Virus record (IMG/VR): IMGVR_UViG_3300049988_000245
Coordinates: 128,001 to 192,000 of that record
Length of the DNA stretch: 64,000 nt
Strand: one strand, 5' to 3'
Source of the DNA: a virus
Taxonomy: Duplodnaviria > Caudoviricetes
Position 1 is the first letter of the stretch, and the number at the start of each line of letters is the position of its first letter. This document shows positions 28,987 to 49,120 of this stretch, piece after piece. A program made the position numbers and the translations under genes. A model generated the notes under the pieces. The model was not told where the DNA came from and made no database searches. It saw only the letters and a program-made list of their open reading frames with translations.

Positions 28987-30294
28987 GTGTCTGAACTCGA
29001 TTCAAACCTGTTTTGCTCATTCTGCACTAAGCCATCCACCGAGGTGAAGAAGCTTATCGCTGGTGATGCCGTCTATATTTGCGACGAATGCATTGATCTT
29101 TGCCACGGAATTCTTCATGAGGCTCCGGTGGAGAAGCGTGAATCTGGGTCCAAGTCGGTTGGATCATCCAAAAAGGTCGAGGAGGAAGAGGAAGAGGAAG
29201 TTCCGACGCCGCGTTCGATCAAGGCTCATCTGGATCAGTACATCATCGGTCAGGACGTGGCAAAGACCGCCGTCGCCGTCGCGGTGTACAACCACTATAA
29301 GCGGCTGGCCAACCCGATCGTCGATGAGGTGGAGTTGGAGAAGTCCAACATCCTACTCCTCGGACCGACCGGCTGCGGTAAGACGCTGATTGCGCAGTCC
29401 ATCGCCCGCCTGCTCGACGTGCCGTTCGCGATTGCCGACTGCACCGCACTGACCGAAGCCGGATACGTCGGCGACGACGTGGAATCGGTCATCACCAAGC
29501 TGCTCCAGAACGCCGATTACGACGTGGAGAAGGCTCAGCGGGGCATCGTCTATTTGGACGAGATCGACAAGAAGGCCCGCCGGGGCGAGACCGCATCGGG
29601 ATCGCGCGACGTGTCCGGTGAGGGCGTGCAGCAATCCTTGCTGAAGCTCCTCGAAGGTTCCGACATCATGGTGCCTGCGGCGGGTGGGCGGAAGTCCGCC
29701 ACCGGAGAGATGTACAAGGTCAACACCAAGAACATCCTCTTCATCTGCGGCGGCGCATTCGTGGGGATCGACAAGATCATCGAACAGGAACTCAACAAGG
29801 GTTCGGGTCAAATTGGATTCGGTGCCAAGTCGGTTGGCAAGAGCAAGATCGAGGTTTCCGCGCTGTTCAAGATGGTTGAGCCTGAGCATGTGGCCAAGTA
29901 TGGACTCATCCCTGAGCTTGTTGGGCGTCTACCGATTCTCGCGCCTCTCCATGAACTCACCGAGGATCAGCTTGTTCACGTGCTGACCGAGCCCCGCAAC
30001 GCGGTGACGAAGCAGTTCGAGAAGCTGTTCAAGCTCGACGGGGTCGAACTCACCTTCACCACGGACGCACTCCAGGCGGTGGCGAATCTCGCGCGCAAGC
30101 GTAAGACGGGTGCCCGTGGCCTGCGCGGGGTTATCGAACAGTATCTGATCTCGCTCCAATTTGATCTTCCGGACCTTGCCAAGGACGGTGTAACCGGTGT
30201 GATCATCGACGAGAAGGTGATCCGATCTGGCGGCACCCCCGAGTTGATCCGTGCGGTTATCGAGACCCCCGCAACCCCCGCCACAGGAGAGTAA
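28987..30294 (+). CDS. clpX: ATP-dependent Clp protease ATPase ClpX
   Basis: CSFC..CDECIDLC zinc domain, GPTGCGKT, GYVG, YLDEIDK, RDVSGEGVQQ, IGF loop, GARGLR. Confidence 0.95.
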   Translation: MSELDSNLFCSFCTKPSTEVKKLIAGDAVYICDECIDLCHGILHEAPVEKRESGSKSVGSSKKVEEEEEEEVPTPRSIKAHLDQYIIGQDVAKTAVAVAVYNHYKRLANPIVDEVELEKSNILLLGPTGCGKTLIAQSIARLLDVPFAIADCTALTEAGYVGDDVESVITKLLQNADYDVEKAQRGIVYLDEIDKKARRGETASGSRDVSGEGVQQSLLKLLEGSDIMVPAAGGRKSATGEMYKVNTKNILFICGGAFVGIDKIIEQELNKGSGQIGFGAKSVGKSKIEVSALFKMVEPEHVAKYGLIPELVGRLPILAPLHELTEDQLVHVLTEPRNAVTKQFEKLFKLDGVELTFTTDALQAVANLARKRKTGARGLRGVIEQYLISLQFDLPDLAKDGVTGVIIDEKVIRSGGTPELIRAVIETPATPATGE

Positions 30295-45964: not shown

Positions 45965-46561
45965 ATGGCCCTCGTTCCTATGGTGCTTGAACAGGACGGT
46001 CGTTCGGAGCGCTCTTTCGATCTTTTCAGCAGGATGCTGCGAGACCGGATCATCTTCGTGACCGGCGAAGTCGAAGACAACATGGCGAATCTCATCGCCG
46101 CCCAGATTCTCTTCCTTGAGAGCGTCGATCCGGACAAGGATATCTCCCTGTACATCAACTCGCCGGGTGGCTCGGTCACAGCGGGTATGGCGATCTTCGA
46201 TGCGATGAATTTCGTGAAGTGCGACATCGCAACGATCGTCATGGGTCAGGCGTGCTCGATGGGCGCGTTCCTGCTCTCCGCCGGGACCAAGGGGAAGCGC
46301 GTTGCCTTGGCGAACTCCCGCATCATGATTCACCAGCCGTCCTCCGGCATGGGCCGGTCCACCGTGACGGACATGGAGATTCAGCTTGCGGAAGTCCTCA
46401 AGATGAAGCGCTCCCTCACCCAGCATCTCGCCGACCATTGCGGGAAGACGTACAAGGAAATGTACGACCTCTGCGAGCGCGACCACTTCATGGATGCGGA
46501 AGAGACCATGGCTCTGGGTCTGGTCGATCGGGTCGTGAAGAATCGTTCGGAAATCGTCTGA
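45965..46561 (+). CDS. clpP: ATP-dependent Clp protease proteolytic subunit
   Basis: [26 protein letters not shown] (Ser), MIHQP (His), ERD (Asp). Confidence 0.95.
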
Positions 46562-47188: not shown

Positions 47189-47589
47189 TCTGGGCGCTGG
47201 CCGTCCTGTTCACCCTGGTGCTGATCCAGCACAAGCATCTGGTGATCGATTGGATATGGCAACCGAAGTTCGAATGGTCGAACAAGCACGAGTACGGGCA
47301 CCTCGGTGGGGTTTGCCACGCGGGTAAGAACGCGCTCGGGACCGGGCTGTGCCTGTTTGCGGGAATGCCGGGGGTGACGATTGGATTCGCGTTGTGGCTG
47401 ACATTCTTGGACTTTGTGATTCACTATCACATCGACTGGTCCAAGATGAATCTGAATCGTTACTGGAATCTGGATGCTTCGAAGCCGCAATTCTGGTGGC
47501 TGACTGGATTTGACCAGCATCTCCACCAGATGACCTACTTGGGTCTAGTATGGTACGCGTTGATCGTGGGGTTCGGTAGGATCGGGTAA
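47182..47589 (+). CDS. DUF3307-like membrane protein
   Basis: HLVIDWIWQ, GGVCHAG, HYHIDWSK, FWWLTGFDQHLHQ. Confidence 0.7.
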   Translation: MLIWALAVLFTLVLIQHKHLVIDWIWQPKFEWSNKHEYGHLGGVCHAGKNALGTGLCLFAGMPGVTIGFALWLTFLDFVIHYHIDWSKMNLNRYWNLDASKPQFWWLTGFDQHLHQMTYLGLVWYALIVGFGRIG

Positions 47590-47999
47590 TGGCACAGACA
47601 CCGTCTGGGATTTTTCAGCTTGAACTGAATACGTTCGAGACCAAGATGTTTGATCTTGGTAGGATGTTCTCGGAAAATGTTGGTCAGGTTAAGATCGACT
47701 TCTTTAAAAAGAAGATCACCGTCAACGTAATGGATGACGCCGAGGGGGCGGTTTTTAAGTTCCTCTCGAAGATTGCCGAAGATAAGGAGCGCGTCCTTCG
47801 GATCAAATACGGTGATCCAGTCGGATACACACTGGACTTTACCGGCACCGAAGTGGACTCCCACACATTCGATATGGGTGATGCGTACGAGGTCAAGAAC
47901 GCGCTTCTTGCCATCTCGACGCTCGCTGGCATGACCTATAACCAGACGCCGATGCACCACAAGATCGTGTTCTCGTACAAGGACAAGATTGCCAAATGA
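47589..47999 (+). CDS. Hypothetical beta-rich protein
   Basis: TAATG overlap; 136 aa. Confidence 0.55.
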   Translation: MAQTPSGIFQLELNTFETKMFDLGRMFSENVGQVKIDFFKKKITVNVMDDAEGAVFKFLSKIAEDKERVLRIKYGDPVGYTLDFTGTEVDSHTFDMGDAYEVKNALLAISTLAGMTYNQTPMHHKIVFSYKDKIAK

Positions 48000-48457
48000 G
48001 CACGGATTTCACCGCCATCGCCAAGGTGATGATCCCGAAAATTCGTCGGACCATGCCGTCGATCATCGCCTCAGAAATCATTGGGGTGTCTCCGATGACC
48101 GGACCGACCGCGAGCATCTACGCGCTGCGCGCCCGATACAGCGCGTTCACGGACGGCTGCTCCGGGATCGATTGCGGTTTCGGTCCGGACATGTCGCCCA
48201 CTTATGGGGTCATCTACGCAACCTGTGTGGACTTCCCGATGAACCATCCACTGCGGAATGATCCGCAAGCCGTGGTGACCTGGGCGCTTCAGAATTGCCG
48301 GAAGTCGTTCACCTACTCGACCGTGGTGATCGGTACGACAATGAATCCTCCGGAGACGGACGAGCGAATCATGAAGATTCGACCTGCCAACCGAGTATGG
48401 CGCTGGACATTCGCAGACGAGGATGATGCTTTCGGGTTCAAGGTTCGTTGGATGTAA
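47996..48457 (+). CDS. Fusion of a gp23-like major capsid fragment and an FKxRW domain (member 26)
   Basis: IPKIRRTMPSIIASEIIGVSPMTGPTASIYALRARY; TWALQNC ... TFADEDDAFGFKVRWM. Confidence 0.7.
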   Translation: MSTDFTAIAKVMIPKIRRTMPSIIASEIIGVSPMTGPTASIYALRARYSAFTDGCSGIDCGFGPDMSPTYGVIYATCVDFPMNHPLRNDPQAVVTWALQNCRKSFTYSTVVIGTTMNPPETDERIMKIRPANRVWRWTFADEDDAFGFKVRWM

Positions 48458-48458
48458 G

Positions 48459-48719
48459 ATGAAATCGCGCGATTATAGTGTAGTCATAGAGGGAGATTAC
48501 GGAAACAACCATCGGTATGGATTCGACCTATACTTCAGCACCAATTGGGGCTACCCAATGTACGCGTGGTGTGAAGAACAGTTTGGCCCGCCTTATGACT
48601 CGACTACCAATCCCGATGGCGTATGGTCGCGCTTTCATCAGAGCGGTTGTATTCACTATGTACAGGTTCGATTTGAGCAAGTCGAATACGCCATCGCGTT
48701 CAAAATGCGTTTTCTTTGA
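48459..48719 (+). CDS. FKxRW-family small protein (member 27)
   Basis: AWCEEQFG ... VRFEQVEYAIAFKMRFL. Confidence 0.7.
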   Translation: MKSRDYSVVIEGDYGNNHRYGFDLYFSTNWGYPMYAWCEEQFGPPYDSTTNPDGVWSRFHQSGCIHYVQVRFEQVEYAIAFKMRFL

Positions 48720-48793
48720 ACCATTTTGGTTAGACTAATGCGACTGAATCCAGGGGCTTGCCAAAACAACACGGGTGCTCAATAAATACCCGT

Positions 48794-49120
48794 ATGGTAG
48801 TCACGACCTTCCAGGCAGGACTCAAGGACCCCCAGCCCTACGTGGTGCGGATGAATCTGTACCGGGCGGGATATGACGACGTGCGAGGCACCCTGCTTGC
48901 GCGCTACGTCGAGTTTTGGTGTCAGAAGAACTGCATCGGCGAATGGCACATCGACCAGACCGCCCACCTGTTGACGGTTTCGTTCTCAGCCACGGTCGAT
49001 ACCGTACTGTTCATGATCTCCGAGGAATACACCTACTTCGTGCCATCGGCGACCACTCGCCCACACGCGGCGTTCGAGGGTCTTCCGGCGTTCACATTGG
49101 GATACACGATTGTGCTTTAG
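48794..49120 (+). CDS. Divergent FKxRW-like protein, leaderless late layout
   Basis: TAAATA(48783-48788)-CCCGT-ATG; EFWCQKNCIGEW ... VSFSATVDTVLF. Confidence 0.6.
   Translation: MVVTTFQAGLKDPQPYVVRMNLYRAGYDDVRGTLLARYVEFWCQKNCIGEWHIDQTAHLLTVSFSATVDTVLFMISEEYTYFVPSATTRPHAAFEGLPAFTLGYTIVL

Follow-up and report, generated by a model that had tools for sequence, protein, structure and literature searches.

A free-standing capsid Gol-region module joined to an FK-family domain in a giant, leaf-associated T4-like phage

Lit, the protease of the Gol/Lit/EF-Tu exclusion system of the e14 prophage, cleaves EF-Tu at Gly59-Ile60. Gol itself is a 29-residue region of gp23, the major capsid protein of phage T4; as a free or nascent peptide it binds domains II/III of EF-Tu in its GDP form and thereby licenses the protease, and 13 residues of its 20-residue core matter for this activity, as set out in a review of the subject (PMC3014915). 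According to the same review, no other region of gp23 is as well conserved as the Gol segment among T4-like phages whose hosts differ widely, and a proposal is reported that the Gol segments of all T4-like phages bind EF-Tu (PMC3014915). Why this segment is the most conserved one in T4-type capsid proteins, and whether the binding of EF-Tu or GroEL serves the phage, have been open questions since about 2000. In the present work a window of 64,000 nucleotides (nt) was analysed, by which we mean the whole stretch of DNA (bases 128001-192000 of the 265,895-bp IMG/VR virus contig IMGVR_UViG_3300049988_000245, CheckV estimate 57% complete), belonging to a giant, leaf-associated, T4-like phage. The open reading frame (ORF) that a preliminary description, made from the DNA letters, had placed at 47996-48457 (+) exists and translates to the quoted protein of 153 amino acids (aa), here P0001. 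In this class of protein the Gol segment stands naturally free of the capsid fold, keeps its invariant residues throughout hundreds of clusters of small proteins and is repeatedly paired with one small domain, that of the FK family (C-terminal DAFxFKMRW motif).

Two further roles of this gp23 region are documented which were absent from the preliminary description, namely GroEL targeting and contacts with scaffold and portal. Proteins fused to the gp23 N-terminus are strongly directed to GroEL (Snyder and Tarkowski 2005, cited in PMC3012670). In the unexpanded T4 head, residues 66-105 of gp23* are disordered and point inward, probably to the scaffolding core; in the expanded head they make up the N-arm and N-fist, and the length mutations A94V and G97S as well as the portal-anchoring Met98 fall within them (PMC9546572). 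Concerning defence, the activation of Lit by EF-Tu-bound Gol, as previously stated for this locus, holds as it is cited in the review (PMC3014915), and the statement that capsid proteins trigger several defences is borne out by the literature, which names several defence systems that sense them and, for Avs7, EF-Tu as a structural cofactor. P0001 and T4 Gol have a homologous segment in common, in each case the most conserved of the capsid family, but T4 Gol belongs to a capsid protein of 521 aa and acts as a trigger by accident, in the nascent state, whereas P0001 is a separate, selected product in which the segment is fused to another domain. Engineered gp23 N-terminal fusions directed to GroEL likewise carry a gp23 segment ahead of an unrelated protein; these are laboratory constructs including the gp23 propeptide, whereas P0001 occurs in nature, begins close to the mature N-arm and has no propeptide helix. 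With the T4-type capsid and vertex proteins (gp23/gp24, PF07068; PA5oct gp329, 121Q gp603) P0001 shares about the first 45 Pfam positions, and with the FK family its C-terminal 67 residues and the motif at the very C-terminus.

Residues 8-50 of P0001 match Pfam PF07068 (Gp23) at profile positions 4-46 of 376 (E-value = 3.5e-12; 46.9 bits against a curated cut-off of 24.4), and residues 2-50 match PHROG 138 'major head protein' (E-value = 2.3e-12). In a phmmer search of the Protein Data Bank (PDB), residues 6-52 align to residues 89-135 of T4 gp23 (6uzc, 5vf3; E-value = 1e-5), with 19 of 47 positions identical, including the RR, P, IA, GV-PM, P and ALRA-Y positions. The comparison of residues 1-50 with gp23 proteins, proposed as a check on an alignment made by eye, was therefore significant by both Pfam and phmmer, and the T4 string given for that alignment is reproduced letter for letter. 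The Gol region, which we take to span about residues 94-122 of T4 gp23, corresponds to residues 11-39 of P0001. The similarity of P0001 to gp23 over these coordinates is far beyond chance.

No part of the Gp23 profile beyond positions 4-46 was matched by P0001. When a flank profile of residues 53-153 of P0001 and of six proteins of the same architecture was compared with a profile of 67 capsid proteins, only a 10-column patch was retrieved and it was not significant (E-value = 0.12), in agreement with the earlier remark that the rest of the capsid fold is missing. A full capsid protein has about 390-520 aa; in P0001, with its 153 aa, an FK-type domain is modelled in place of the complete fold, and without spine helix, A-domain and P-domain it cannot form the HK97 fold. 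The patch itself (RWTFADEDDA, in the FK domain at window 48395-48424) resembles RWTFEAAQDA of capsid proteins, which covers the return strand of the E-loop and the start of the spine helix. It is colinear with capsid proteins (e.g., L019:3845-5029, L113:619-1836) and could be a recombination microhomology.

An FKxRW domain does follow the module, as had been described. The flank profile matched 57 paralogues of the DAFxFKMRW family (P0001 excluded) over 52 columns (hhalign 97.5%, E-value = 5.7e-12), hmmsearch with the FK family hidden Markov model (HMM) retrieved P0001 with an E-value of 1.1e-6, and the motif is found at the extreme C-terminus (DAFGFKVRWM, then stop). About 75 ORFs on the contig carry the C-terminal DAFxFKMRW motif in a regular-expression scan, and the FK family profile gave no match to the capsid profile. 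An AlphaFold2 model of P0001 was built from a 64-row alignment (mean predicted local distance difference test, pLDDT, of 76), an earlier one from 4 sequences (pLDDT 45) having been set aside as too poor. In this model the module consists of a helix (5-27), a loop (28-37) and a second helix (38-51), the linker is disordered (pLDDT <50 for residues 51-71), and the C-terminal domain (pLDDT >90) is predicted as beta-alpha-beta-beta-alpha, with helices at 90-100 (VVTWALQN) and 142-152 and strands at 105-112 and 132-139. The cysteine pair of the linker, C55 and C60, is kept in the three closest proteins and not in P0004 (see below). Wide searches with Foldseek/PDB and VIA-align retrieved only generic small alpha/beta folds of the ferredoxin-like, KH or ACT kind (Z about 5, up to 5.5), and an Atlas structure search with the P0001 model gave only TM <0.5.

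The preliminary description had gone further and taken P0001 as a hint that the FK family delivers variable payloads. This was not supported, since no recognisable fragment was detected in any other member tested: the variable parts of the 24 other FK members in the window gave no Pfam or PHROG match, and the FK N-terminal parts tested contig-wide (58 FK ORFs, under a stricter motif) did not match any larger ORF of the contig. Among the FK members tested, P0001 alone has in its variable part anything that can be recognised as a piece of a core phage protein, and it is the exception within the FK family. What moves is the capsid module, found in other phages on a variety of unrelated scaffolds. 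P0001 provides the first functional handle on the FK family, which occupies several percent of the phage DNA. Overall, the preliminary description is confirmed in what it observed and supported in part in how it was interpreted.

The spread of the module was studied with a profile of 50 positions, searched against 1.84 billion representatives. It matched 2390 proteins at E-value ≤1e-3 and 568 at 1e-10. After removal of full-length capsid proteins and of fragments with capsid-like flanks, about 90 of the 150 best matches are small non-capsid proteins with unrelated flanks, of at least five architectures: module and then FK-type domain, as in P0001 (A); FK-type domain, then module and charged tail (B); an 'AAYLLTWTE' domain followed by the module (C); short leader, module and acidic tail (D); and a Tat-like (twin-arginine translocation) RRxFL leader followed by the module (E). 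P0002, P0003, P0007, P0012, P0008 and P0019 are, like P0001, complete small ORFs internal to their contigs, and the contexts looked up were T4-like phage contigs with gp25, gp5-like, gp32 or gp59 genes nearby. In the ESM Atlas, small viral 'Gp23 domain' proteins form several clusters of 72-204 members. A Megablast of the region against 50,697 cultured phages gave no match, tblastn of P0001 against these records gave true capsid genes only (one place per record, one record excepted), and only capsid genes were found among the best 80 loci of an IMG/VR scan with the module profile. Given what the cultured records return, the class is so far one of uncultured phages, and no paper describing free-standing Gol-module proteins was found in the literature.

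The pairing with FK is recurrent. An HMM built only from the FK paralogues of this phage matches 19 of 146 short module proteins of unrelated metagenomes; in 13 of these the module comes first, in 6 the FK domain does. That the fusion recurs in either order, a Rosetta-stone sign, suggests joint action of the FK domain and the module's partner. The invariant positions of the small proteins are those of capsid proteins (profile positions R14, R15, M17, P18, A22, G27, V28, P30, M31, G33, P34, R42 and Y45; Spearman 0.73 for per-column entropies). As they are kept by proteins that lack the remainder of the capsid fold, a partner in trans must be the source of the constraint. Additionally, at least nine module proteins carry, downstream of the module, an LLENTR helix which in capsid proteins lies 23 residues upstream of it, within the cleaved propeptide. 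Among proteins classed as small, LLENTR was found in 4 against 0.07 expected from shuffles, five more having been filtered out by that very match, and the permuted order suggests that helix and module form one structural or functional unit. P0006, P0011, P0026, P0027, P0049, P0054, P0097 and P0153 are among the carriers.

Regarding the origin of the P0001 module, the phage's own full-length capsid gene was searched for on the 57%-complete contig and not found, and for this reason the capsid protein of the nearest complete relative found (G006, 608 kb, topoisomerase 73% identical) was used as a proxy. The module is 54% identical to it, differing at about 46% of positions. The nearest capsid proteins overall, with 54-62% identity to P0001 in the module, are the compact ones of 390-415 aa known from jumbo phages. 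The Q-to-S exchange that P0001 shows in GVQPM occurs in 27% of the small proteins and in 0 of 68 capsid proteins. The contig also bears a cassette of shrunken capsid-derived proteins, the Tat-leader mini-capsid cassette (L003:1045-3104); the 301-aa Tat-leader mini-capsid protein has no more than YxLRxRYS in common with P0001. A tree of the 46 retained module columns, itself poorly resolved, places P0001 within an 18-member clade made up solely of small proteins of differing architectures (SH-like 83), and the label small or capsid changes 25 times on the tree against about 60-70 in shuffles. The tree, the proxy identity and the single shared motif indicate that the module was inherited or shuffled among mini-proteins and not freshly copied out of the capsid gene. 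By these comparisons, P0001 is an FK-scaffolded member of a class of free-standing capsid-peptide proteins that is widespread yet apparently undescribed.

Three proteins of the same architecture were retrieved by a word-indexed search, namely P0002 (75% identity), P0003 (60%; filed under a Verrucomicrobiaceae metagenome-assembled genome) and P0004 (43%), and in their alignment with P0001 the module is the best conserved block. The N-terminus of P0001 is conserved in P0002. The block around P0002 and P0003 is syntenic with ours (136-aa gene, P0001, 86-aa FK gene, 120-aa gene, reversed 224-aa gene), with homologues of the 136-aa gene directly 5' of P0002 (74% identity) and of P0003 (64%). Nei-Gojobori ratios of non-synonymous to synonymous substitution (dN/dS) are 0.22 for P0001 against P0002 (module 0.18) and 0.39 against P0003. 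The stretch with P0001 is present in leaf and silage metagenomes of several studies; among the public runs listed as containing it there is no RNA dataset. A silage strain shows three synonymous and three non-synonymous differences (T3M, E142D, G147A), and in the module core a single synonymous change. Such a substitution pattern marks P0001 as a gene kept by selection and not as a relic or debris. G006 is without P0001: it retains the flanking ClpP, membrane-protein and 120-aa genes, and a different 116-aa gene replaces the 136-aa gene, P0001 and the 86-aa FK gene.

We tentatively favour, by analogy with the known roles of this region, the explanation that the module serves as a portable peptide for docking to an ultra-conserved host factor, EF-Tu and/or GroEL, with which the nascent capsid protein also associates. 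The module, whose some 45 residues comprise the end of the N-arm and the first P-domain/E-loop strand (Gol region), would engage in trans the same host partner as the nascent capsid protein; the likeliest candidates are GDP-bound EF-Tu, the GroEL chaperonin or both. In P0001 it would link the FK domain to this partner, or would compete for it with the nascent capsid protein, and the protein would probably be made from a non-late transcription unit. A peptide that is near-invariant across phages of cyanobacteria, enterics and leaf bacteria, also when the fold is absent, would point to an ultra-conserved host ligand, and P0001, as a natural N-terminal fusion like the GroEL-directed gp23 fusions, was counted in favour of a GroEL partner. 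Which partner is bound, when the protein is made and what binding brings about are inferred here; the effect may be delivery of FK, or modulation of how the capsid protein uses EF-Tu or the chaperonin. Cpn60 and Cpn10 were searched for on the contig and neither was found. Co-folding of the module (78-row alignment) with E. coli EF-Tu scored 0.00 and counts neither way. The partner of the mini-protein is very likely that of the nascent capsid protein, which makes the Gol question directly testable; if it is EF-Tu or a capsid sensor, these proteins would represent a new kind of host-takeover or anti-defence tool.

Several points weigh against a docking peptide of this kind. Convincing Tat-type export leaders on P0019, P0096, P0142 and P0149 are odd for a ligand of cytoplasmic EF-Tu or GroEL. 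At least nine module proteins have the capsid propeptide helix on the downstream and not the upstream side of the module, and the gp23 N-terminal region faces the scaffolding core of the T4 prohead, which points to an assembly partner. The free module is predicted by AlphaFold2 as helix-loop-helix, a shape that may not be the one relevant to EF-Tu binding. Finally, P0001 is dispensable or accessory, given its absence from G006, the closest complete relative found.

With respect to timing, a T4-type late promoter (TATAAATA) was looked for 5' of the P0001 operon and none was found. Boxes of this type occur nine times in the contig against about three expected, and six of them, at G000:C1 5097, 45386, 49672, 64413, 164809 (window 36809) and 210633, have an ORF of 185-1000 aa within about 20-175 nt downstream; the nameable ORFs behind such boxes look gp32-like, fibre-like and small heat-shock-like. 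The lack of a box 5' of the operon, though boxes are present elsewhere in the contig, weakly favours non-late expression. A scan for sigma-70-type promoters performed no better than shuffles.

An assembly partner is the core of an alternative that we consider unlikely, in which the module mini-protein is built into the growing head or regulates it, being packaged (and possibly injected) as an accessory protein or else modulating assembly or competing in it. The module, together with the propeptide helix in some relatives, would here reproduce the capsid contacts to the scaffolding core, the portal or neighbouring subunits. The inward-facing gp23* 66-105 of T4, with A94V, G97S and Met98 in it (PMC9546572), fits such a role, as do the LLENTR motif in at least nine module proteins and the cassette of shrunken capsid-derived proteins on the contig. 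P0001, however, lies in an accessory island beside ClpP and small FK genes, outside the structural module, with no late promoter 5' of it, and it bears neither an LxE-type prohead-protease site near the module nor the propeptide helix. Moreover, fast-evolving scaffold proteins would be expected to fit a near-invariant peptide less well than a host ligand does, and a dominant-negative capsid fragment would harm the phage itself. Should the partner nevertheless be scaffold or portal, the module would represent a new route for targeting proteins to heads.

Rather more doubtful is counter-defence by mimicry. Here the free module would be a non-activating competitor for a sensor that reads the capsid peptide, alone or EF-Tu-bound (Lit-type proteases, Avs7), so that abortive infection is blunted once the phage makes its actual capsid protein. 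No linear capsid peptide other than Gol is known to be read by a defence system, but in E. coli the free peptide activates Lit and does not block it, and a decoy thus needs the extra assumption of binding without licensing cleavage. Several systems do sense capsid proteins, with EF-Tu as cofactor in the case of Avs7; the other known capsid sensors, however, recognise a folded shape and not a 45-residue peptide, and no Lit-type system is known for the host. The position of P0001 in a variable accessory island absent from G006, and the divergence of its module from the proxy capsid protein at about 46% of positions, including the Q-to-S exchange in GVQPM, would suit a decoy. A narrower version, with module proteins as non-activating occupiers of EF-Tu or of an EF-Tu-dependent sensor (Lit-type or Avs7-type STAND) before capsid protein is made and FK as handle or effector, is to be viewed with still greater doubt. 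If this version were true, the most conserved T4-like capsid peptide would be both a target of host sensing and the template of a phage antagonist family.

Finally, a neutral mosaic, in which an old illegitimate recombination, possibly at RWTF-D--DA, fused a capsid fragment to an FK gene and the functionless N-terminal piece was carried along by selection on the FK domain, would agree with the mosaicism common in phage accessory regions, with the colinear 10-residue RWTFADEDDA/RWTFEAAQDA patch and with the dispensability of P0001 in G006, but it is very improbable and disfavoured by the conservation data, as the orthologues are best conserved over the module (dN/dS 0.18), which recurs with capsid-like invariant residues on many unrelated scaffolds and clusters in P0001 with other small proteins and not with capsid proteins (SH-like 83), while the microhomology is not significant (E-value = 0.12).

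The Tat-like leaders of some relatives fit none of the explanations above (docking, prohead, decoy or mosaic) well. Tat-type leaders (SRRxFLxG and a hydrophobic stretch) were located directly 5' of the module in P0019, P0096, P0121, P0142 and P0149 and at L109:75-335. The T4-like phages with Tat-leader module proteins have gp32 and gp59 nearby, and the arrangement parallels the Tat-leader mini-capsid cassette of our contig.

The coordinates of P0001, its parts and its neighbours are collected in Table 1. As the ATG of P0001 overlaps the stop codon of the 136-aa gene (ATGA) and a 1-base gap separates it from the 86-aa gene, the three genes look translationally coupled. Pfam and PHROGs gave no match for the upstream 136-aa gene or for the downstream genes. 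Homologues of the 120-aa gene were found in L017 (95%), L018 (84%) and G006 (50%); being kept in G006, where P0001 is absent, this gene marks the edge of the variable accessory island.

Table 1. Positions in the window of the P0001 gene, its segments and the adjoining genes.
Feature	Position	Strand	Description and basis
P0001, whole gene	47996..48457	+	153 aa; capsid Gol/N-arm module, linker and FK-family domain; ORF list, translation
Capsid module, residues 4-52	48005..48151	+	homologous to T4 gp23 ~89-135; Pfam, PHROG, PDB alignment
Gol-equivalent core, residues ~11-39	48026-48112	+	inside the capsid module of P0001
Linker, residues 53-86	48152..48253	+	no family match; alignment, low pLDDT
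FK-family domain, residues 87-153	48254..48454	+	ends DAFGFKVRWM; predicted beta-alpha-beta-beta-alpha
Upstream 136-aa gene	47589..47999	+	ATGA overlap with P0001; co-conserved with P0001
Downstream 86-aa FK-family paralogue	48459..48719	+	starts 1 nt after the P0001 stop
120-aa gene	48758..49120	+	internal FK-like motif; conserved flank of the variable island

Some minor observations were made on the module class and on the surroundings of P0001. Two adjacent genes at L108:1862-2474, of 83 and 119 aa, both encode a Gp23 module in tandem. The complete 524-kb phage G002 (terminal repeats) has a normal 407-aa capsid protein (L103:1297-2520) and also a 164-aa protein (L106:1492-1986) that begins with a diverged half-module, KVMLPMIRKVVPNLIAQSIVNVQPM, ahead of a helical domain. 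In runs X3 and X8, short contigs begin at window 48391 (48391-48529) with unrelated sequence before this point and 10-19 differences; these look like other FK-family loci sharing the C-terminal motif DNA, and not like variants of P0001. The 86-aa FK gene 3' of P0002 (L017:1439-1699) is intact, yet missing from the source gene calls. The 120-aa gene (48758-49120; L116:1447-1761) contains an internal motif D-x-VLF-x-IS-x-EY, followed by a C-terminal extension. The mini-capsid cassette is adjoined by a GIY-YIG homing-endonuclease-like gene (L003:103-741, minus strand). ClpP (window 45965-46561, Pfam E-value = 1.6e-73) is located about 1.4 kb upstream of P0001 on the same strand, and the phage also encodes ClpX (zinc finger and AAA domain) at window 28987-30294.

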